A stretch of 64,000 bases of DNA from Octopus vulgaris (taxonomy: Eukaryota): positions 83,328,001-83,392,000 of the forward strand of contig OX597818.1 of assembly GCA_951406725.2 (NCBI GenBank), read 5' to 3'. The notes under the pieces are model-generated. The model did not search any database. It was not told where the DNA came from and worked only from the letters and a program-made list of their open reading frames with translations. The translations under genes and the position numbers were made by a program. The first letter of the stretch is position 1, and the number at the start of each line of letters is the position of its first letter. This document shows, piece by piece, positions 7,956 to 50,024 of the stretch.

Positions 7956-8379
7956 ACGTCGGTGTACCACTAATAATAGAACATTCCTGATTAAATGTTT
8001 TGCTTTGAAATATATCGCATGACTTTTAAGATTGTTAGAACCCCGGGCAAGATGCTCCGCGGCATTTCATCAGTTTTTACTTTATGGTTTAAAACTTCAC
8101 CGAGGTCGACCTTGCTTTTCATCCTTTCGGGGTCAATAAGATAAGTATCGCTGGGATCAGCGTAATTGAATTACCATTCCCCCTAAATTGCTGGTGTTGT
8201 GCCAAAATAATGAAACAAATATATCATATGACCTTTAGTCCTTTCTTGAAGAACACAGTCTGAAATATTTGAGTATACGCACAAGCTGCTCCTTTTGATA
8301 TATACCAACATTACACAAATATAAATGACACTTATGCCTTGCAGAAGGTCAGCAAATATTCAAAGTTAAAGGAGTTCCT

Positions 8380-11741: not shown

Positions 11742-12651
11742 AAAGCGACGATCTGGCAGAAACGTTAGCACGCCGGGCGAAATGCTTAAAGTTATTTAGT
11801 CTGTCTCTACGTTCTCAGTTCAAATCCCACCGAGGTCGACTTTGCCCTTCATCCTTTCGGGGTCGATTAAATAAGTACCAGTTACGCACTGGGGTCGATA
11901 TAGTCGACTTAATCCGTTTGACTGTCCTTGTTTGTCGTCCCTGTGTTTAACCACTTGTGGGTAGTAAAAAATAGGTATTTCGTCCGTCTTTAAAGGCGAC
12001 GAGCTGGCAGAATCGTTCGGGTGAAATGCTTAGCGGTATTTCGTCCGCCGTTAAGTTCTGAGTTCAAATTTCGCAGAGATCGACTTTGCCTTTCATCCAT
12101 TTCGGGTCAATTTGTTTGTCGTTCCTGTCTTTAGCCACTTGTGGGTAGTAAAAAATAGGTATTTCGTCTGTCTTTGCGTTCTCAGTTCAAATTCCGTCGA
12201 GGTCGACTTTGCCTTTCATCCTTTCGGGGTCAATTAAATAAGTACCAGTTACGCACTGGGGTCGACATAATCGACTTAATCCGTTTGTCTGTCCTTGTTT
12301 GTCCTCTCTGTGTTTAGCCCCTTGTGGGTAGTAAAGTAATAGGTATTTCGTCGGCCGTTACGTTTTGAGTTCAAATTCCGCTGAGGTCGACATTGCCTTT
12401 CATCCTCTCCGAGTCTATATGCTTAGCCCCTTGTGGGCATTAAAGAAATAATAAACGTTAGCACGCCGGGCGAAAAGTTTGACAGTATTTTGTCGGTCTT
12501 TACGTTCTGAGTTCAAACGTCACCGAGAGCGAATTTACCTTTCATCCTTTCGCGGTCGATAAATTAAGTACCAGTTGCGTACTAGGGATCGATCTAATCG
12601 ACTGGGTACTCTCCCAAAATTTCGAACCTTGTACCTAGAGTAGAAAAGAAT
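11742..12651 (+). mobile_element. Tandem array of SINE family B (Meta/MESC-like central domain)
   Basis: About five partly truncated units with head GGCGAGCTGGCAGAAACGTTAGCACGCC, B-box-like GAGTTCAAATTCC, and central GCCTTTCATCCTTTCGGGGTCGATAAATTAAGTACCAG. Confidence 0.85.
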
Positions 12652-26595: not shown

Positions 26596-26644
26596 CTGAT
26601 CCTCATGCTGATGCGGTTGTATCATTATTATTATTATTATTATT

Positions 26645-27199
26645 GAGTGAGAGAGCAGTTCATGCCATCAAAGTGACGCTGGGGTAAAATATACGAAGCC
26701 CAATATACCCATCATGACTACCCGTCTGATAAGGGTACACCAGGCACATGCATCACAACAATATGTGCGCGACATGGTGATCTCATATCAAGATAAACAG
26801 CACATGACCTTGCAGGTGGGGCCTAGTTAGAAATTTCTTCAGGTTGAGTAGCCCATCCTGCTCAAAAGGTCCCTGAATAAGGGTTGTTTAAGGATGTTGA
26901 AAGAACCACTCATGTTTCCAGAGGTGAATTATTCAAACCCCAAAGGATTCCTCTCAACACATGGCTATGATGCTCCCCACTACTTCTGCTCGTGATCAGA
27001 GATGCACATATCGTCAGCCACTAAGGGACATGCTCAACTGGTTAAGGTCAAACAACTGACAAGCAAATCTGTGGTATTGAGCAGAATATTTGCTGTAGCC
27101 CATCTTTTATACCAAGACAAAAATATGTACATGATAACACTTCCAATCAGTTAAGATCAGAAGCCATGAGAGCCAATGCCTGGCACTGCATCAGGGCAT
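26645..27199. mobile_element. ~555-bp (TAA)n-associated element, copy 1 (plus a 66-bp internal duplicate at 27202-27267)
   Basis: GAGTGAGAGAGCAG...TGCATCAGGGCAT, collinear with three other copies. Confidence 0.85.
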
Positions 27200-27266
27200 A
27201 ACTCCCCCACTACTTCTGCTCGTGATAAGAGATGCACATATCGTCAGCCACTAAGAGACATGCTCA

Positions 27267-27352
<86 letters not shown>

Positions 27353-27354
27353 AA

Positions 27355-27570
27355 TGGAAAGCTGGCAGAATCGTTAGCAAGCCGGAGGAAATGCGTAGCG
27401 GTATTTCGTCTTTCTTTATGTTCCAAGTTCAATTTCCGCTGGGATCATCCTTTTGGGATCGATAAATTAAGTACCAGTTGCGTACTAGAGTCGATATAAT
27501 CGACTGGTTCCCTCTCATTAAATTTCAGACCTTGGCCCAACAATAGAAAGGATTATTATTATTATTATTA

Positions 27571-27605
<35 letters not shown>

Positions 27606-27860
27606 GTTGTTGTTGTTGTTGTTGTTGTTATTGTTTTTATTATTAAGGTGGTGAGCTGGCAAAATCGTTACCACGCAGGGAGAAAAGCTCAATGGTGTTT
27701 CGTTCGTCTTCCCGTACTGCGTTCAAATTCCGCCGAGGTCGACTTTGCATTTCCTTTTTCGGGGTCGATAAATTAAGCACTAATAAAACACTGGAGTCGA
27801 TGTAATCGACTTATCCCCTCCCCCAAAATTGCAGCCTCGTGGAAAAATATGATACCATTA
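27355..27860 (+). mobile_element. Two SINE family B monomers (27355-27555 and 27645-27860) with (ATT)n tails
   Basis: Family B head and central domain in both; tails run into (ATT)n. Confidence 0.8.
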
Positions 27861-27869
27861 TTATCATTA

Positions 27870-27949
<80 letters not shown>

Positions 27950-28503
27950 GAGTGAGAGAGCAGTTCATGCCATCAAAGTGACACTGGGGTAAAATATACG
28001 AAGCCCAATATACCCATCATGACTACCCGTCTGATAAAGGTAAACCAGGCACATGCATCACAACCATATGTGCGCGACATGGTGATCTCATATCAAGAGA
28101 AACAGCACATGACCTTGCAGGTGGGGCCCAGTTAGAATTTTCTTCAGGTTGAGTAGCCCATCCTGTTCAAACGGTCCCTGAATAAGGGTTGCTTAAGGAT
28201 GTTGAAAGAACCACCCATGTTTCCAGAGGTGAACTATTCAAACCCCAAAGAATCCCTCTCAACACATGGCTATGATGCTCCCCCACTACTTCTGCTCGTG
28301 ATCAGAGATGCACACATCGTCAGCCACCAAGGGACATGGTCAATTGGTTAAGGTCAAACAACTGACAAGCAAATCTGTGGTATTGAGCAGAATATTTGAT
28401 GTAGCCCATCTTTTATACCAAGACAAATATATGTACATGATAACACTTCCAATCAGTTAAGGTCAGAAACCATGAGAGCCACTGCCTGGGACTGCATCAG
28501 GGC

Positions 28504-28505
<2 letters not shown>
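27950..28505. mobile_element. ~555-bp (TAA)n-associated element, copy 2
   Basis: Same termini as copy 1, with (TAT)n on both sides. Confidence 0.9.
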
Positions 28506-28587
<82 letters not shown>

Positions 28588-28589
28588 CA

Positions 28590-28880
28590 TATAGGACTGA
28601 CTTAACTCCTCCAGAAGATATAGAGAAATAATTAGAAGAGCACCATAGTTAACATGTGAAATTGGTTGAATGATATTTTGGCATCTAGCGTGCCTCAGTC
28701 CTATATAATCTTTAAAAAAAAAGTAAAAAAATAAGTAGACTGACATGTAATTTTTGAAGCTGTGGAAGGCAGGCTCGATGCTGAAATGTCTTTCAACCAA
28801 TTTCACATGTTAACTATGGCACTCTTGTATTTTGTTTCTCTGTAACTTCTGGAGGACTTACATCAGTCCTATATAATCTT
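28590..28880. mobile_element. Foldback of ~105-bp inverted repeats with a hammerhead-like motif (inverted Penelope pLTR-like)
   Basis: 28590-28695 is the reverse complement of 28767-28873. The motif TTGAAG-CTGTGGAA-GGCA..TGCT-GAAA-TGTC-TTTCAA lies at 28754-28796. Confidence 0.6.
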
Positions 28881-28934
28881 AATAATCCTATATAATCTTA
28901 ATCTTAATCTTAATATGTTATTATCATCATCATC

Positions 28935-29033
<99 letters not shown>

Positions 29034-29043
29034 CATCATCATT

Positions 29044-29094
<51 letters not shown>

Positions 29095-29107
29095 GTTATT
29101 ATTATTA

Positions 29108-29322
29108 AAGCGACGAACTGGCAGAATCATTAGCACGCCGGGTGAAATGCTTAGAAGTATTTTATCTGCCGCAACGTTCTGAGATAAAATTCCGCTGATG
29201 TCGACTTTGCCTTTAACCTTTCGGGGTCGATAAAATGAGTACCAGTAAAACATTGGAGTCGACGTATTCGACTAGTCTTCTCCCCCACCAAATTTCAGGC
29301 TTTGTACCTATAGTAGAAAGGA
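29108..29322 (+). mobile_element. SINE family B monomer
   Basis: Head directly after (ATT)n, then body and tail type 2. Confidence 0.85.
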
Positions 29323-29324
29323 CG

Positions 29325-29600
29325 AAATTGAAAGTGGAGAGGGAAGTGCTCCCTCAAGTGAGTTTATTGAAAGGTAGGTAAAAGTTGGGAAAATAGCAAT
29401 AGGGGATGGTACCTCTCTAAGTGTAGACCTGTGAATCGGTGAGAAGGAATTAGAGAGGGCAGTTAATCTTGGTGTTTAGGGAAATCTCCGTGACTGGGGT
29501 TCCTCGATTATTCCTAGTGGTCATCCCGTATCAGGAGGAATACATCTATATTATCCTTCCTCTATTTTCTTTTTTCTCTTTTTTATATATCTTTGTAAAC
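29325..29600 (+). mobile_element. Tx1/L1-like 3' fragment ending at (TA)n
   Basis: KLKVEREVL..SEFIER*VKVGKIA parallels the other Tx1-like C-termini in the window. Confidence 0.45.
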
Positions 29601-29614
29601 TATATATATATATA

Positions 29615-30010
29615 TAAAAAATACAAAATGGGACAAGAACGTAAAACATCTAGATAGACGATACAAAAACACGGACGGGTCATTCGAAGCCTTTAATCTT
29701 CAGTCAAGAACCGGATCATCCTCGCAATTTCGGCTGGTTAATCTTGAGATTGGTCCAATCTTGCCAGCCCCAAGGAAAAACTAAGCTAAGAGCATTAGAT
29801 TCCTTGGAAAAAGGATCGACTGTATATGAAACAAGGACGGAAAAACGGACGATGTTACACGAATATAAATACAAAAATAATACAAAAAAAACAATAATAA
29901 TAATAATAACAGGACATAACAGGCGTCTTTCGACTTGAGACGAATTGGATTCAGCTGACGTGTAGGAAATTAAGCCTTACGGCAGAGGAAAAGATCGATA
30001 TGAACGTGAC
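29615..30010 (-). repeat. Unclassified repeat, possibly Penelope pLTR-related
   Basis: Homologous to 1560-1730. The minus strand has a GGCTGG...CCAGCC-GAAA stem but no full hammerhead core. Confidence 0.4.
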
Positions 30011-30147
30011 CGTGCTCCCTGTCCATTGTTTACAGTATATATTTACCTTCATTTTTTTTTGTTATCATTTCATTATATGTGAACGCTTTATGTTTGTTTT
30101 ATATTGTTTCCCTCATCCTAGTCAAGGTGGCAAATCAATGAAGTCAA

Positions 30148-30223
<76 letters not shown>

Positions 30224-30247
30224 GTTGTTGTTGTTGTTGTTGTTATT

Positions 30248-30278
<31 letters not shown>

Positions 30279-30313
30279 TTATTGTTGTCATCATCATCAT
30301 TATTATTATTATT

Positions 30314-30868
30314 GAGTGAGAGACCAGGGCATGCCATCAAAGTGACACTGGGGTAAAATATACGAAGCCCAGTATACCTATCATGACTACCCGTCTGATA
30401 AGGGTACACTAGGCACATGCATCACAACCATATATGCGCAACATAGTAATCTTTATATCAAGATAAACAGCACATGACCTTGCATGTGGGGCCCAGTTAG
30501 AATTTTCTTCTGCTCGAGTACCCAATCCCGTTCAAAAGGTCCCTGAATAAGGGTTGTTTAATGATGTTGAACGAAATACCCATGTTTCCAGAGTTGAATT
30601 ATTCAAACCCCAAAGTTTCCCTCTCAACACATGTATATGATTCTCCCCCACTACGTCCGCTCGTGTTCAGAGATGCACAAATCGTCAGCCACTGAGGGAT
30701 ATGCTCAACTGGTTATGGTCAAACAACTGACAATCAAATATGTGGTATTGAGCAGAATATTTGCTGTAGCCCATCTTGTATACCAAGAAAAAGAAATGTA
30801 CATGATAACTATTCCAATCATTTGAGATCAGAAGCCACGAGAGCCACTGCCTGGTATTACATCAGGGC

Positions 30869-30870
<2 letters not shown>
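30314..30870. mobile_element. ~555-bp (TAA)n-associated element, copy 3
   Basis: Same termini, with (TAT)n flanks. Confidence 0.9.
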
Positions 30871-30928
<58 letters not shown>

Positions 30929-30999
30929 CATCATTATTATTATTATTATCATTATTATCATCATCATCATAATTATTTCTATTATTCTATAAGGCGTCT

Positions 31000-35257: not shown

Positions 35258-35308
<51 letters not shown>

Positions 35309-35347
35309 TGATGATGATGATGAGGATAATAATAATAATAATAAAAT

Positions 35348-35388
<41 letters not shown>

Positions 35389-35390
<2 letters not shown>

Positions 35391-35943
35391 GCCCTGATGC
35401 AGTACCAGACAGTGGCTTTCATGGCTTCTGATCTTAACTGATTAGAAGTGTTATCATGTACATTGTTTTGTCTTGGTATAAAAGATGGGCTACAGCAAAT
35501 ATTCTGCTCAGTACCACAAATTTGCTTGTCAGTTGTTTGACTTTAACCAGTTGAGCATGTCCCTTAGTGGATGACGATATGTGCATCTCTGATCACGAGC
35601 AGAATTAGTGGGTGAGCAGCATAAACATATATTTAAAGGAATTCTTTGGGGTTTAGATAATTCACCTTTGGAAACATGGGTGTTTTGCTCAAAATCCTTA
35701 AACAACCCTTATTCAGGGACCATTTGAGCGGGATGGGCTACTCGAATACCCCCCCCCAAATCTAACTGGACCTAACCTGCAAGGTCATGCGCTATTTTTC
35801 TTAATATGAAATAACCATATTGCGCACGTTGTGATGCATGTGCCTGGTGTACCTTTATCAGACGAGTAGTCATGATGGGTATACTGGGTTTCGTATATTT
35901 GTACTCCAATATCACTTTGATGGCATGCACTGAGCTCTCACTC
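35389..35943. mobile_element. ~555-bp (TAA)n-associated element, copy 4 (inverted relative to copies 1-3)
   Basis: ATGCCCTGATGCAG...CTCTCACTC, within (AAT)n. Confidence 0.9.
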
Positions 35944-35947
35944 AATC

Positions 35948-35991
<44 letters not shown>

Positions 35992-36623
35992 TAATAATAA
36001 TATGTACAAGGACAGAAATATTTGGGGAGGTAGCTTCTCGATTACATAGGCCCTCAGCGGTAGCGGTCAACTTTTACTCATTTCACGGACCCCGAAAAAA
36101 TGAGTGGTAAAGGTGATTATGGTAGCATTTGAACTCAGAACGTAAAACTGAAACATATGATGCTAAGCATTGTGTCCGACGTGGCTCTTTCAGCTCGCTG
36201 ATGACGATGTCGATTATGACGACGACGACGACGATGACGACGATGATGATGATGATGATGATGATGATGACGACGAAGACGTCGATCATGATAACAACCA
36301 TGATGACGATTATGAAGTTAAGGTCAAGGAGGACATTTTTTAAACATTTGCTTGCAGAGTCAATTCAAATCTTGGAAGAGTGCCATTACAAGCTTTAGGC
36401 GAATAGGGAGACAGATCATACTTTTCCGTTGTTCGTAATCGTTTAGTGATATTATCATGCCGTCGCGGTCGCCTCTGCTGCTACCGCTGTAGTTTCTTGT
36501 GTTGAGGATGATAATGATTTGTGAAAAAGTTTTCTTTTTTCCTCGCTGTAATTTCCAGTTCGTATTTTATAGTTTCCTTACATTTAAAGTCTTCTATCTT
36601 TTATTCACAATTTTGTTAAACTT

Positions 36624-37035
36624 AGGCGAGCTGGCAGAAACGTTAGCGCGCCGGGCGAAATGCGTAGCCGTATTTCGTCTGCCGTTACGCTCTGAGTTCA
36701 AATTTCGCCGGGGTCCACTTCGCCTTTCATCCTTTCGGAGTCGATTAAATAAGTACCAGTTACGCACTGGGGTAGATATAATCGACTTAATCCGTTTGTC
36801 TGTCCTTGTTTGTCCTCTCTGTGTTTAGCCCCTTGTGGATAGTAAAGAAATAGGTATTTCGTCTGCTGTTATGTTCGGAGTTCAAATTCCGCCGAGCTCG
36901 ACTTTGCCTTTCATCCTTTCGGTATCGATTAAATAAGTACCAGTTACGCACTGGTGTCGATATAATCGACTTCATCTGTTTATCTGTCCTTGTTTGTCCT
37001 CTCTGTGTTTAGCCCCTTGTGGGTAGTAAAGAAGA
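36624..37035 (+). mobile_element. SINE family B tandem, two tail type 1 units
   Basis: ~180-bp unit repeated from GGTATTTCGTC. Confidence 0.9.
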
Positions 37036-38509: not shown

Positions 38510-39645
38510 GCGGCGAGCTGGCAGAGTCGTTAGCACGCCGGGCGAAATGCTTAGCGGTATTTCGTCGGTCGCTACGTTCTGAGTTCTTATTCCGCCGAGG
38601 TTGACTTTGCCTTTCATCCTTTCGGTGTCGATTAAATAAGAAACAGTTACGCACTGGGGTTGATGTAATCGACTTAAACCGTTTGTCTGTCCTTCATTGT
38701 TCTCTCTGTGTTTAGCCCCTTGTGGGTAGTAAAAACGTAGGTATTTCGTCTGCCGCTACGTTGTGTTCAAATTCCGCCGAAGTCGACTTTGCCTTTCATC
38801 ATTTTGGGGTCGATTAAATAAGTACCAGTTACGCACTGGGGTCGATATAATTGACTTAATCCGTTTGTCCGTCCTTGTTTGTCCTCTCTGTGTTTAGCCC
38901 CTTGTGCGTAGTAAAGAAATAGGTATTTCGTCCGTCTTTAAAGGCGACGAGCTGGCAGAATCGTTAGCACACCGGGTGAAATGCTTAGCGGTATTTCGTC
39001 TGCCGTTAAGTTCTGAGTGCAAATTTCGCAGAGATCGACTTTGCCTTTCATCATTTCGGGGCCGATAAATTAAGTACCAGTTACGCAATTGGGTCGATAT
39101 AATCGACTTAATCCTACTGTCTGTCCTTGTTTGTCCCCTCTGTTTTTGGCCGTCTGTGGGTAGTAAAGAAATAGGTATTTCTGAGTTCAAATTCCGCCAC
39201 GGTCGAATTTGCCCCTCATCCTTTCGGGATCGATAAATTAAGTACCAGTTGTGTACTGGGGTCGATGTAATCGACTGGCTCCCTTCCCCAAACATTTTGG
39301 GCCTTGTGTGCCTATAATAGAAAGGATAAATTTAGTACCAGTTGCTTACTGGGGTCGATGTAATCGACTATCCCCCTCCCCAAAACTTTCGGGCCTTTTG
39401 CCTAAAGTAGAAAAGAATAGTGTCAGCGGCGAACTGGTTGAAACGTTAGCACGCCTGCCGAAATGCTAAGCGTTATTTCGTCTGTCTTTACGTCGTTAGT
39501 TCAAATTCCACCGAGGTCGACTTTGCCTTTCATTCTTTCGGAGTCGATGAATTAAGTACCAATTGCGTACTGAGGGGAGGGCCTATCTAATCGACTGACC
39601 CCCTCCCCAAAACTTCGGGCTTTGTGCCTAAACTACAAAGGAATA
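38510..39645 (+). mobile_element. Long tandem array of SINE family B
   Basis: Five to six units with mixed tail types, joined at GGTATTTC or at new heads. Confidence 0.9.
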
Positions 39646-41399: not shown

Positions 41400-42320
41400 C
41401 TAACAGAACAAACTCATTAATCTGCATATGTTATATTCACACAATTCATGCAGACAATGTCTGCCGGGGAGGTGAACGAGGTTGAACGGTACGGATACAT
41501 GAAAACGATTAAACCGATTTTCGATGGAGTAAAGATGTCAGTCATCTTAGCAGCGGACACACTTTAAAACAAAGTTTAATAGTTTCTAACTTGATTAAGA
41601 CTCCACCCATTTTCATTTGTAAGAATTAGCAAGAACTTAAAGAAACCACTACAGCTATTTCCACTACCACACGCAACGACAAAGACAAACATCGCCGACA
41701 AAAGCAACGACAATTAAAAAAAAGTGGCTGTAATGAAAAAAATATAACGGAAAACATTCTGAAAAATTACTATAAAAGATATATAAAACAAAATCATTAT
41801 AGAATTTTCAATAAAAAGTTTAAAAAGAGCACCAAAAATAAAAAAAGAAATTTCAACACGAATATAAAGTTTCAATGTAAAACAACAAAACAATGAAAAG
41901 TCATTATAAAACTTTCAATGAAAGAAAGAAAGAAGGAAGGAAAGAAAGAAATAAAGAATTATAAAAGTTTCATTGAAACATTACAAAACAATAAATAAAT
42001 AAATATTTCTAGAAAATTTTCAATAAAATCGCCACAAAAAGAAAAACACTCGAAAATCTTCTTAAAAAAATCTATAAAGAAAAAAAACAATGTAAAACGT
42101 TCAATAAAAAATACGAACTAATAATGAAAAATGTTTAGAACAATGAAAAAAATACAGAAAAATCATAAAAATCTCACAAGGAAACAACGAAAAAATTAAT
42201 GAATATAAAACCAAAAATAATTAAAGAATGAAAAAATATATAAATATATATATGTAATTGACAAAAAAATAACGAGAAAACAAAACCAATATGTAAACAA
42301 ATATATGGAGAAAATAATAT
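41400..42320. repeat. A-rich low-complexity tract with loosely repeated AAAAGTTTCAATGAAA-like units
   Basis: Composition visible directly. Confidence 0.7.
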
Positions 42321-42456
42321 ATATATGTATATATATATATTTAAAAGTATTCTGCGGGGCTGGGGAACGTGGTTTGATTTAACACGTGACCAAGTTTTAT
42401 TGATCACATGGCATTAATTTCAACAATTGAGGGTTTACAAATCCGAATTAAGGAAT

Positions 42457-42518
42457 TTTGGGCTGACGAAAGAAATGTCGAATTGTATTTGGCTGATCTA
42501 GAAACGTACGTTCTCAAA
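42457..42518 (+). ncRNA. Type I hammerhead ribozyme, copy 1
   Basis: TTTGGG-CTGACGA-AAGA...TCTA-GAAA-CGTACG-TT-CTCAAA. Palindromic stem III ACGTACGT and GUU triplet; the first stem II pair is A/A. Confidence 0.7.
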
Positions 42519-43020
42519 TAACCTTTGCATATGTGATTTTTTAATGTTTTTACCCCCATACCTTCGTGGGCTATTTTGAGTAAGCACTATCTGAGAGAAA
42601 TTTCCTTTAAGTATTAGAATTTGGCTAAAAAAATTTTTTAGCTGCTATTTCTAATGAGTTCAGTATGTGGCAAAGTAATTTATTTTACTAAGCCCTTTAT
42701 AAAATGTAATATTTTGAATTCGCCTTAAATGGTCCCTTTACATACTGAATACTTGGTGAAATTGATTAATAATTAATTAATTTTACCCTCAATTGTTGAA
42801 ATTATAATTCATTTCTCTCTGTTTAATGCTTCGGTTTTCACCGATAAAATTATGGTGTTTGCTAACTTAGCCCACGTGGGTGGAAAGGGGAGGGCAGAAA
42901 TTCTTCGCTTGCATATTTTGAATTTGTTGGCACTGGTAGTCTGAACGGATCCTCGAAGGTGAAAAGTCGCCAAAAGGGTATGCTCCTACTTTCAGTGTTT
43001 ACAAATCCGAATTAAGGAAT

Positions 43021-43082
43021 TTTGGGCTGACGAAAGAAATGTCGAATTGTATTTGGCTGATCTAGAAACGTACGATCTCAAA
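43021..43082 (+). ncRNA. Type I hammerhead ribozyme, copy 2 (cleavage-triplet U mutated to A)
   Basis: Identical to copy 1 except CGTACG-AT-CTCAAA. Confidence 0.6.
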
Positions 43083-43449
43083 TAACCTTTGCATATGTGA
43101 TTTTTTAATGTTTTTACCCCCATACCTTCGTGGTCTATTTTGAGTAAGCACTATCTGAGAGAAATTTTCTTTAAGTATTAGAATTTGGCTAAAAAATTTT
43201 TTTAGCTGCTATTTCTAATGAGTTCAGTATGTGGCAAAGTAATTTATTTTACTAAGCCCTTTATAAAATGTAATATTTTGAATTCGCCTTAAACGGTCCC
43301 TTTACATACTGAATACTTGGTGAAATTGATTAATAATTAATTAATTTTACCCTCAATTGTTGATATTATTTATATTATATATATATATATATACATATAT
43401 ACATATATACATATATATATATATACATATATATATGCATATATATATA

Positions 43450-43692
43450 CATACACACACACACAGATATATATATATATATAAAGATTTATGTAAAAGT
43501 GAAATCAAATTGGTAAAATAGTTTGAAATGCCATGTAATTTTATATTTCGATATAAGCTGTCGAATTACAATTTTCCTATATATACATATAGATGTAGGT
43601 ATGTACATATATGTATGTATATATGCAGATTTTTATATATTATTTATATTATATATATACATATATATATGTATATATATATATATATATGC

Positions 43693-43723
<31 letters not shown>

Positions 43724-43843
43724 CACACACACACAGATATATATATATAAATATTTATGTAAAAGTGAAATCAAATTGGTAAATTAGTTTGAAATGCCAT
43801 GTATTTTTATATTTCGATATGAGCTGTCGAATTACAATTTTCA
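43450..43843. repeat. Local tandem duplication (~125-bp island twice, period ~270 bp)
   Basis: ATTTATGTAAAAGTGAAATCAAATTGGTAAA...GCTGTCGAATTACAATTTTC at ~43487 and ~43753. Confidence 0.9.
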
Positions 43844-43907
43844 CATATACATACGTGTGTGTGTGTGCGGGCGCGCGCGTGTGTATACACACACACTATT
43901 CATATAA

Positions 43908-46396: not shown

Positions 46397-49300
46397 CCTA
46401 CGAAAATGACGACCTTCAAAATAATGGACCGGACGTTGTTCCTCATGTCCCGCAAATAAAACCCAAAAGATATAAATGGACCCGTGAAGAATGCATTTCT
46501 ATCCTACACGCTCACTTTACTGCAGTGCTCTACCCAAAGAATGAAAACACAACAACACATACATATAAAATATGGAAGGAAAATAACATAAATATAGACT
46601 TGGATACAGCAATGAACCCTAATAAACTAGCTAACGTACGAAGATACAGTCTCAACGCAAAAAAAATATCAGAAATAGAAATAGAACATCTAAAAGAAAA
46701 AAATACATCAGGAAAATGTAGATAGAAGCCACACAACAATGCCCAATAATATAAACACTGAAACAGTAAAGCACGAAGACAAACGTAACGTTCCCAAGAA
46801 ACACGATGTAAACAAAAAACGACAAATCCAGACCGTAATGATGCATAATAATACACGACAAACAGCAAGCCAAAACAAGACGAACAAACATACAAATAAG
46901 AAAGAAAGTGACACAAATCTAAAACCTGGAAACAATGAAAAAATCAAAATAGACGAAACAACAACACCAATTATAAACAGCATAAACCTAGCCGTCACGG
47001 AAGTAATAGCCACTGAAACAAAAAGCGATATCACTGAGCTAAATGACTTAGTATATGCAGCAGCCATTGTAGCCACAGAAGAAGCTGGATACTCACTCAA
47101 ACCCGTCCAAACAGGAGTACCACCACCCAAACAAACCCTACGGATAAATAACATCCAAAACAAAATACAAAAAATAAGAAAATATCTGTCGATTCTTAAT
47201 GGAATCAGTAGACAATCAACGCTACTGAGCAACAAAAAGAAAACAAAAATACTCCGCAAATACATCACAGAAAAAGATTTACCTGAGATAAAAGAAAAGC
47301 TAAAGCAAGATATCCTTGCCAAAGCACAAAGGCTCCGCCGGTACGAGAAACGCCAGGGCTTCTTTGAAAAAAACAAAAAGTTCAACTCCAATCCCAAAAA
47401 GTTCTACCAAGAACTTGGCAAAAATAAAATAGAAATCACCGCAGCAACAACGGCAGAAGAAGTGGAAGAATTCTGGAGAGAAATATGGTCGGCGAACGAT
47501 CAACCAAAAAAAAGGAGTATTGAAACAACAAACTCAGCATCTGAGCAACTTTGGACCACCATAACAACTGAAGAGGTCACCCAGGCACTACAAAGGCTAA
47601 GCAACTGGAAGGCACCTAGGCATGACAAGATCCCCAACTTATGGTTGAAATATCTAACAGGAATGCACAAAAAGCTGGCCGAAAACTTGAAAAACATACT
47701 GGCAGAGCCAGAGACAATGCCTGAGTGGTTCACAAAGGGGAAAACAATCTTAATTCCCAAAACAAATGAGACAGCAAAACCAGAAAACTACAGACCAATA
47801 ACCTGTCTCCCTACAATACAAGGAATTTACTGCAGTGATATCGCAACGGTTGAACAAGCACCTGGATGAAAACAACATGTTTCCAGAAGAGCAGAAAGGA
47901 TGCCGCAAAGGCTCAAATAGTTGTAAAGATCAACTAATGATTAATAAAGCCAGAACTGAAGACAGCCACAGAAAGAAGAAAGGCCTCAGTATGGCCTGGA
48001 TCGACTACAAAAAGACGTTTGAGAGCATCCCCCACACATGGATCCTCGAAACACTAGCCATTAACAAAGTAGCACCTACAATTATAAAATTCATAGGACA
48101 CTCTATGAAGAAATGGCAAACATTGCAACAGCTGCAAACAAAAGACAGTCTCATAAAAACCAAAGCCATCCCCATTAGAAGAGGAATATTCCAGGGAGAC
48201 ACGCTCTCTCCACTCCTTTTCTGCTTGGCACTGTCACCTCTATCTGATATGCTAAATAGTACTGGATGCGGATATAAATGTTACGGCAAAACGATCAGCC
48301 TCCTTTTATATATGGATGACATAAAACTATACGCTGTAAATGACAAAGAGCTGGAAACATTATTAAAGACAGTTCACGGATTTACCAAAGAAATAGATAT
48401 GAAATTTGGATTAGAAAAATGCGCCAAAGTAACCATGAAAAGAGGAAATCTAGTTAAGAGTAGCAACATCACACTAGATAAAACCAATGAAATAAAAGAA
48501 TTAGACCAAAGCCAAACTTACAAATACTTAGGAATCCATGAACTAGATAAGACACAACACACACAAATGAAAGAGAAAATAAAAAAGAATATTATAGACG
48601 AGTTAGATCAATACTAAAAACAGAGCTCAATGCTAAAAACAAGATAATAGGTATTAACACTTTAGCTGTCTCAGTTATAAGTTACAGCTACAATATCCTT
48701 AACTGAACACTAAATGAACTGACCAAAATAGATAGGAAAACAAGAAAAATAATGACAGGATCTAGGATGCATCACCCAAAATCTGACATAGAAATACTAT
48801 ATATACAACGTATAGAAGGTGGTAGAGGCCTTATACAGCTGGAAAACTACTATAAAATAACCACCATAGGACTGCAAAAATATCTACTTCAGAAGGAAGG
48901 AAAACTGATACAAATAGCGGCAAAACACGAGCAAAACAAAAAACTGTTCTCAGGAAGCTGACAAATACAAACAAGAAATCATATCACCTAACAAAGAAGA
49001 AGAAGAAGAAGAAGAAGAAGAAGAAGAAGAAGAAGAAGAAGAAGAAGAAGAAGAAGAAGAAGAAGAAACAACAAAAGCTATAAAACAAATGAAATCCAAA
49101 CTAAAAATAGAACAGCAAAGATCTATGATAAAACGATGGCAAGAAAAGCCCCTTCATGGTAAATACTGGACTAAACTAAATGCAAAAGAAATAGAAAAAG
49201 AAAAATCCCAGCAATGGTTTGGAAGCTCAGGACTCAAAGGCAGAGACAGAGGGATTTTTAATTGCAGCACAAGACCAAAGCCTCCCCACCAGAAATGACC

Positions 49301-50024
49301 AAAAACATGTAATGAAAAGAAATATAACAAGTAACTGCAGAATATGTGGAGATGGACAAGAAACAATAAATCATATTATCTCTGGCTGCCCAGTCCTGGC
49401 TAAGAAGGAATATATTCACAGACACGACAGAGTTGGAACCTTCATACACTGGAAACTATGCCAACCTTATGGAATAACAACAACAAAAACAGATGGTATA
49501 GGCACACACCAGAAAATGCCACAGAAAACGAGAAAGCAACCATACTCTGGGATATGCCGATACACAAAGACAGAGAAATTAAGGCCAACAGACCAGATAT
49601 AGTTGTCAGAGATCATGAAGAAAATAAATGCTTTCTAATTGATGTATCAATACCGGCAGATGACAAAGTGTCTCTAAAAGAAATGGAGAAACTCTCAAAA
49701 TACAAAGACCTGGAAATAGAGGTAACCATAATGTGAAATCTAAAAACAGAAACAATTCCTATCATAGTAGGTGCATTAGGCATGATAAAAAAATATTCAA
49801 ACTAATACATAACAAAAACACCAGGATTACATACACATATAACATACAGAAAATTGCACTACTAGGCACTGCACACATCCTACGCAGAACACTTTCCATA
49901 CAATAACCATCAGAGCATCACAACAAATCACAGCACATACGCAAGGCACACAGAGCTGCGCTCGGTAGTGAAGTGAAAGCACGCTATAAAAATAAAACTA
50001 CTGAATAATAATAATAATAATAAT
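46396..50024 (+). mobile_element. R4/Dong-type non-LTR retrotransposon (RT plus restriction-like endonuclease), near full length, inserted in (AAT)n
   Basis: One ancestral ORF split over 46312-49905: N-terminal KWTREE, RT motifs YRPITCLPT, EEQKGC, WIDYKKxFxSIPH, RGIFQGDTLSPLLF, YMDD and KYLG, CCHC knuckle CRIC..HIISGC, RHD, and RPDIV..D..K..KY. (AAT)n on both sides. Confidence 0.93.
46405..49905 (+). pseudogene. Disabled RT-RLE polyprotein of the R4/Dong element
   Basis: Frameshifts near 46710, 47820, 48590, 48950, 49215 and 49490; stops near 48704 and 49735; a (GAA)n expansion at ~48995-49066. Confidence 0.9.

Follow-up and report, generated by a model that had tools for sequence, protein, structure and literature searches.

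Penelope-like elements (PLEs) insert in a characteristic pattern: a partial tandem with a tail, accompanied by an inverted copy that is 5'-truncated, at (TA)n targets (PMC8557442; PMC3846280). Non-PLE sequence framed by pLTRs has been moved in trans (PMC3846280). In vitro the anole PLE nicks AT-rich DNA and starts reverse transcription (RT) inside the RNA, downstream of the hammerhead; ribozyme mutants still insert, and cleavage is thus not needed (PMC11167929). The locus described below lies in a 64-kb stretch of Octopus vulgaris DNA, which we call the window. Like EN-positive PLEs with pLTR hammerheads, it has partial-tandem direct repeats, an inverted 5' piece, a TA/AT-rich target, a type I hammerhead with a palindromic stem III in the repeat, and an element end downstream of the cut (PMC4209133; PMC3846280; PMC8557442; PMC11167929). 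Unlike those elements it lacks an RT-EN ORF, its unit measures 564 bp and its stem II is longer and interrupted. The geometry also differs from that of the anole PLE, where RT starts 111–118 nt into the ORF and the cut lies 26 nt into the ORF (PMC11167929), whereas the 3' end here is found ~290 nt behind the cut.

Hammerheads of the Hydra clade, of which one family has been described from Octopus bimaculoides, share with this locus an additional nucleotide at each side of stem II, a frequent U at the cut, a short stem III and (TA)n targets (PMC8557442). The mismatch is A·A here in contrast to U·U or U·C there, and no likeness to the published Hydra-1_Obim sequence is seen by eye; clade membership would have to come from a protein. 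Animal non-LTR retrozymes are likewise ORF-less, low-GC tandems with one type I hammerhead per repeat, a self-paired monomer and many copies (PMC7229834; 10.64898/2026.07.22.740005). In contrast to them, the octopus element has kept an inverted PLE end and has non-canonical helix sizes, and it is known from sequence, with cleavage and circles predicted. With one intact hammerhead of two, this locus falls outside the definition of an "active" retrozyme, and cleavage was reported for one of nine retrozyme dimers tested (10.64898/2026.07.22.740005). MRC1 and the other non-autonomous Chlamys elements are also short non-coding PLE derivatives with pLTRs and head-to-tail insertions, but they occur in green algae, belong to a clade that mostly lacks canonical hammerheads and have known partners (PMC8557442).

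The class of element is already known: in its working the locus resembles the pLTR end of a PLE, and in its build an animal non-LTR retrozyme. The first-pass annotation offered a retrozyme-like element and a tandem pLTR element as alternatives. They are not real ones, as a 2026 preprint traces animal retrozymes back to Penelope pLTRs (10.64898/2026.07.22.740005). The open literature on octopus and cephalopod hammerheads or Penelope, and on retrozyme editing, yielded no description of this family; Repbase, Dfam and subscription journals lie outside that scope, and the supplements of 10.64898/2026.07.22.740005, PMC4209133 and PMC7229834 may list it. The squid genome paper gives 235 Rfam hammerheads, without further detail (PMC6962438).

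Anatomy of the locus and its hammerheads

Self-comparison reveals two forward-strand repeats of 367 bp, copy 1 at 42433–42799 and copy 2 at 42997–43363, which align without gaps at an offset of 564 and differ by five substitutions (~1.4%) at 42511, 42570, 42604, 42633 and 42730 in copy 1 numbering. Copy 1 is the pLTR-like 3' part of an upstream unit. The 197-bp spacer (42800–42996, forward strand) is present once, between the repeats, and takes the place of an ORF. A 20-bp inverted end on the reverse strand (42415–42434) is the exact reverse complement of 42785–42804 and overlaps the start of copy 1 by 2 nt. An imperfect (TA)n run follows at 43363–43483 (43364–43483 when counted as flank) and is the likely insertion target; copy 2 can be extended into it as far as 43369 with one mismatch. 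The insertion thus amounts to 1.65 units plus the inverted end, beside a TA run. At the (TA)n side no target-site duplication could be resolved, nor is there a clear 30–40-bp tail at this locus. Read as a circle, the unit has a longest ATG frame of 30 aa in sense and 43 aa in antisense, and an RT plus GIY-YIG ORF is absent from it by frame scan and Pfam. These results bear out the first-pass description of near-identical repeats around a spacer, of hammerheads 564 nt apart, one per repeat, of a trailing (TA)n and of no ORF, and they also confirm the inverted end, which is however 20 nt and not 19 nt long.

Two open frames, of 40 aa over the hammerhead and 54 aa in the spacer, were considered as coding sequence and rejected (four protein candidates, none at E ≤ 1, and no Pfam family). 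Likeness between the left and right flanks reaches 11 of 12 nt at best, which we take as chance. At 42975–42996 a word like a splice donor is followed by a tract of pyrimidines and then by AG, and their order and 18–19-nt spacing are kept in diverged members of the family found in loose ends of the public runs X2, X4 and X5 described below. Splicing at the donor-like word (42976) was discarded, as GT..AG ends occur in none of the eight joints listed. By eye, the 5' end of the published consensus of Hydra-1_Obim shares an 11-nt word with this segment.

No further copy of the unit was found in the window, which is AT-rich and dense in microsatellites. Directly behind the element, at 43371–43853, a 266-bp unit made of a TA/CA run and ~100 bp of complex sequence is duplicated in tandem, the copies being 90% alike. 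Four copies of a ~720-bp repeat, 82–90% alike and with (ATT)n runs at their borders, lie at 26616–30986 and 35258–36002; three are direct and the fourth is inverted. A very frequent SINE-like repeat forms ~184-bp tandem units at 11793–12406, 36670–37033 and 38556–38932, and ARAGORN found no tRNA in it. The forward strand carries a broken non-LTR retrotransposon at 46694–49736 that matches RVT_1 and zf-RVT. An (ATA)n run precedes it and an (AAG)n run breaks into it; it may be of the R4/Dong type.

The hammerhead of copy 1 (42450–42525, forward strand) was recognized by hand and with a hand-made descriptor, and its cleavage is predicted. It has the core CUGACGA (42463–42469) and GAAA (42501–42504), and of the general hammerhead requirements the core CUGANGA plus GAAA, A15.1–U16.1 and H17 are all present. 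Stem I, of 4 + 6 bp (42450–42453/42522–42525 and 42457–42462/42513–42518), closes both ends. Stems II and III can form; the former is long and interrupted (42471–42499, 3 + 7 bp) and the latter is an 8-nt palindrome (42504–42511). The cut is predicted after GUU, between 42512 and 42513. Beside the core, the 10.1–11.1 position, usually a G–C pair, is instead A·A (42470/42500), which leaves the base of stem II mismatched. The minimal PLE hammerhead consensus has G10.1–C11.1 (PMC4209133), whereas mismatched natural examples have been published for this position (PMC3088659; PMC8557442). By our own tally, the Hydra-clade hammerhead table has a mismatched stem II base in 15 of its 26 rows (14 U·U and one U·C) and a U at the cut in 10 of 26, with A·A listed in none (PMC8557442, File S2). 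The layout seen here therefore has precedent. Stems I and II each contain a 3 × 3 internal loop (42454–42456/42519–42521 and 42474–42476/42494–42496), and the majority variant G42495A makes the letters of the two loops identical. An inner hammerhead with CUGA at 42493 was rejected; it lacks G8–A9 and is lost in the same variant.

In copy 2 (43014–43089, forward strand), repeat alignment shows an A at 43075. The first-pass annotation took this as loss of the cleavage-site U, but the lost base is U16.1, which is distinct from the cut-site U. A change at either 15.1 or 16.1 carries a penalty of tenfold or more (PMC3088659). The descriptor matches exactly once in the 64 kb, both strands included (copy 1, core at 42463). 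On dinucleotide-shuffled units it matched in 3 of 20,000, and in 0 of 20,000 once the stems had to be as long as those seen here, rates that are optimistic because it was written by hand after the motif was seen. At gathering score Rfam reports no hammerhead for the window, nor is there one among 13 matches at E ≤ 10 around the locus, and the isolated 76-mer motif folds no better than shuffles (z −0.67).

The repeat family in public contigs and the folded unit

Parts of the stretch are held by 20 of 24 listed public runs, from nine studies and under four organism labels. We compared 42040–42996 with the contigs of four of them (X1, X2, X4 and X5), from which all evidence below is drawn and of which X1 is possibly the assembly's own source. 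The joint from spacer to repeat (42996 to 42433) occurs in all four, at depths of 6128, 5475, 300 and 65, and the longest short sides of the joint measure 22, 26, 60 and 96 letters. The flank has a depth of ~30–40 in X1, 25–50 in X2 and 5 in X4, and the joint is 60–175 times as deep in these three runs; the flank bins of X5 are uncovered, and X5 is left out of this evidence. The junction from repeat to spacer (42799/42800) is bridged by an X4 contig at depth 624. Both internal junctions of the unit are thus verified independently of the exact locus, which none of the listed contigs spans over 42040–42996. The element is a member of a multi-copy family and not a single-copy duplication. Summed depth, which is not a copy number, reaches 20,000–1,800,000 in the element bins of X1 and X2. 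The deepest single contigs, at 8071 (X1) and 25,000 (X2), imply hundreds of copies at least. Overlapping contigs of high depth cover the spacer, and it is therefore the short unit itself that has been amplified.

Summed depth does not change monotonically along the unit (in X1, 823,000 at 42893 against 42,000 at 42830), and for this reason it does not demonstrate polarity of 5' truncation; truncated dispersed copies and tandem arrays look alike. Depth steps near 42770–42830 stand amid noisy depth. Sorted by identity, the X1 contigs comprise 1130 at 99% or more, 1040 at 95–99%, 694 at 90–95% and 270 below 90%. The first-pass label "young" accordingly suits this locus, with 1.4% between its copies; the family has greater diversity, 270 of 3134 X1 contigs being less than 90% alike. 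Exact 23-nt patterns of the element have no match in metagenome or viral contigs. Among other details, X1 holds a link between 42434 and 42799 of unstated orientation, and an X5 contig (depth 45.6) skips 110 nt (42654–42765) across the long hairpin, either as a deletion variant or by a template jump in the library. At 42789, two X5 contigs have a loose end that continues as a run of A (agreement 0.62), perhaps a poly(A) tail close to the 3' end. AATAAA and ATTAAA are absent from the unit.

The unit taken from cut to cut (42513–43076, 564 nt, forward strand, bounded by predicted ribozyme sites) is predicted to fold at −162.4 kcal/mol (z −7.0), and none of 100 shuffles is as stable. With 25 shuffles each, z is −7.5 from cut to cut, −5.8 from boundary to boundary, −3.3 for the repeat alone, 0.1 for the spacer alone and −4.5 for the minus strand. 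The repeat is predicted to pair with the spacer (42545–42601 with 42811–42896), and the two ends of the unit pair with each other as stem I (probability 0.96). Just before the 3' end of the element stands a predicted 15-bp AT-rich hairpin (42755–42787, forward strand; pair probability 0.97). For 42450–43089 the double-hammerhead fold, at −180.6 kcal/mol, is within 0.9 kcal/mol of the free minimum of −181.5 kcal/mol, compared to −173.9 kcal/mol for the monomeric hammerhead. In the whole 931-nt transcript the dimer fold (−241.1 kcal/mol) costs 3.6 kcal/mol relative to the free fold (−244.7 kcal/mol), which disrupts hammerhead 1; the monomeric form has −238.5 kcal/mol. The dimer fold pairs U16.1 of copy 1 and sets A·A opposite site 2, which suggests that cleavage could occur at site 1 and only poorly at site 2.

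Variants from the contigs allow a comparison with the predicted pairing. The 40 variant rows analysed, out of 98, fall at unpaired positions (17), keep a pair (15) or break one (8). Among these 40 there is no two-sided compensatory change, and none hits a conserved core position of the hammerhead. G42492A turns a U–G into a U–A pair in stem II, and in the loose end of one X2 contig a 2-nt insertion leaves stem III palindromic. With four rows almost confined to X5 dropped, pairing survives in 13 of the 21 variants at paired positions (8.4 expected, P 0.0065), and 28 of 36 variants are harmless (22.6 expected, P 0.019), P values that are indicative because the copies are related.

Insertion route and competing readings

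We consider it probable that the locus is a non-autonomous mini Penelope-like element, whose uncut tandem transcript was copied in trans by a PLE enzyme. The PLE traits present are the partial tandem that gives pLTR-like direct repeats, an inverted 5'-truncated copy at the 5' end (20 nt only), a sense-strand hammerhead inside the pLTR, and an AT-rich/(TA)n target, the last being weak as it concerns one locus and TA runs abound in the window. That the element is a non-autonomous hammerhead-bearing tandem of Penelope or retrozyme type, as the first-pass annotation proposed, is supported by the multi-copy family, the structured unit and the accessible dimer fold. The inverted piece starts (42804) within 5 nt of the right end (equivalent to 42799–42805), at one site. 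The insertion ends 80 nt before and ~290 nt after the cut, neither end being at the cut site. These positions fit internal initiation of the Penelope type, with a template that was either uncut or circular, and not the copying of linear monomers. Copy 1 starts 1–3 nt behind a TCAGT/pyrimidine-AG motif (42992–42996 equivalent), a word present twice in the unit. TCAGT is similar to an initiator and, just as much, to a splice acceptor. The region of the motif is also found in the loose ends of X2, X4 and X5. An initiator-like TCACT has been described in a pLTR (PMC3846280).

The proposed route would begin with a head-to-tail source copy transcribed on the forward strand, possibly from the initiator-like motif at 42992–42996. 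A PLE reverse transcriptase-endonuclease supplied in trans would nick AT-rich DNA, and the cDNA would start inside the RNA near the hairpin at 42755–42804, ~290 nt behind the cut, with the hairpin as a candidate landmark. More than one unit would then be copied, back to near the RNA 5' end, and a further, brief initiation where the cDNA began may account for the inverted piece. The hammerheads would act as a pair, joined in the folded unit through their palindromic stem III. Since site 2 is presumably cut only poorly at this locus, little release of monomers is expected; because the template of the insertion was probably uncut (or circular), cleavage would be a side route or a later step. As to an autonomous partner, the ends of the octopus Hydra and Naiad consensus sequences published in PMC8557442 are unlike the unit by eye save for two short non-collinear words, and four short words of the unit are absent from the supplement of that paper. 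Penelope expansions have been noted in octopus (PMC8967140).

The nearest competitor is the classic non-LTR retrozyme cycle, in which tandem transcripts are cut into 564-nt monomers and these close into circles that serve as templates for more-than-unit cDNA. It shares its ancestry and helper enzyme with the PLE reading and differs in having the circle as the working intermediate. We regard it as rather unlikely here, although a circular template would also yield 1.65 units. The folding favours it in that the cut-to-cut rotation folds best (z −7.5 against −5.8 from boundary to boundary), with its ends paired as stem I (0.96) and the dimer fold accessible. Coral, mussel and axolotl have low-GC retrozymes with type I hammerheads in tandem and circles that pair with themselves (PMC7229834), and the unit length is within the published 51–972 bp (10.64898/2026.07.22.740005), but it exceeds the 170–400 nt of invertebrate retrozymes (PMC7229834) and stem II is non-canonical. 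A circle or a cut end is not visible in contigs. The junction test suggested in the first-pass annotation would not be enough by itself, as a circle joined at the cut has the sequence of a tandem transcript that is linear. That copy 1 starts 1–3 nt behind an initiator-like motif is unexpected from a circular template, a point that comes from one locus and was made post hoc. Eight of nine predicted Xenopus retrozyme dimers remained uncleaved in vitro (10.64898/2026.07.22.740005), which we count against the PLE reading.

Amplification at the DNA level by unequal crossover would instead make the family a pLTR-derived satellite with a passenger hammerhead and the locus a displaced fragment of it. 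Head-to-tail joints are abundant, as such a satellite would have them, contigs do not separate arrays from dispersed copies, and a DNA-level route is discussed in 10.64898/2026.07.22.740005. The locus, however, comprises no more than 1.65 units and has its inverted end beside a TA run, the variants favour the keeping of pairs and the core positions are untouched in the 40 rows analysed; we judge a satellite origin very unlikely. Extremely unlikely, and already largely refuted, is the reading as an assembly artefact, a single-copy duplication or a duplicated coding exon with a chance hammerhead-like word. In its favour a 40-codon open frame crosses the hammerhead, Rfam is negative and none of the listed contigs spans the locus. 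Against it, the copies differ at five positions, both junctions occur at high depth in other runs, the descriptor matched 3 of 20,000 shuffles, no protein relative (in a weak search) or Pfam family was found, and the X2 loose end by eye puts a stop codon into the 40-codon frame. The mini Penelope-like element copied from an uncut transcript thus remains our preferred reading.

Possible editing and wider meaning

Run X5 is putatively RNA. On the hammerhead-sense strand it shows A>G at 31 of 63 listed places, compared to 6 of 52 in X1, 8 of 60 in X2 and 12 of 56 in X4 (Fisher P against X5 of 2e-5, 2e-5 and 0.002). Within X5, A>G exceeds T>C by 31 to 9 (P 0.0007), and this ratio differs from that in X1 and X2 (P 0.02 and 0.009), but not clearly from that in X4 (P 0.14). 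Two changes, A42500G (47 of 172 in X5) and A42610G (54 of 82), have zero depth in X1, X2 and X4. Position 42500 is the adenosine next to G12, beside the hammerhead core. In this comparison between public runs, the A>G excess in X5 points to possible A-to-I editing of transcripts in the hammerhead sense. Octopus repeats and a lizard Penelope element are already known to be heavily edited (PMC5625713), and editing as such would therefore not be new. A more far-reaching model would make the family an abundant, transcribed mini-PLE inserted by the Penelope route, in which paired hammerheads give rise to circles of 564 nt and ADAR editing at 42500 tunes the ribozyme. We offer it as a speculation and think it improbable as a whole.

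One kilobase of octopus DNA shows both the Penelope insertion signature and the build of a retrozyme. The locus supports, in an invertebrate, the view of animal retrozymes as non-autonomous Penelope derivatives, which by the account of the preprint itself is untested outside vertebrates (10.64898/2026.07.22.740005). The family is highly repeated and yet missed by Rfam, and such hammerheads are therefore probably undercounted. Without cleavage, circles or a partner the family would represent an ordinary repeat class. Should the A>G excess reflect editing, this family would allow a direct test of ADAR's effect on cleavage by a ribozyme. If the reading with both circles and editing is true, the retrozyme and Penelope cycles would be tied together in one invertebrate family, with control of the ribozyme by editing in addition.
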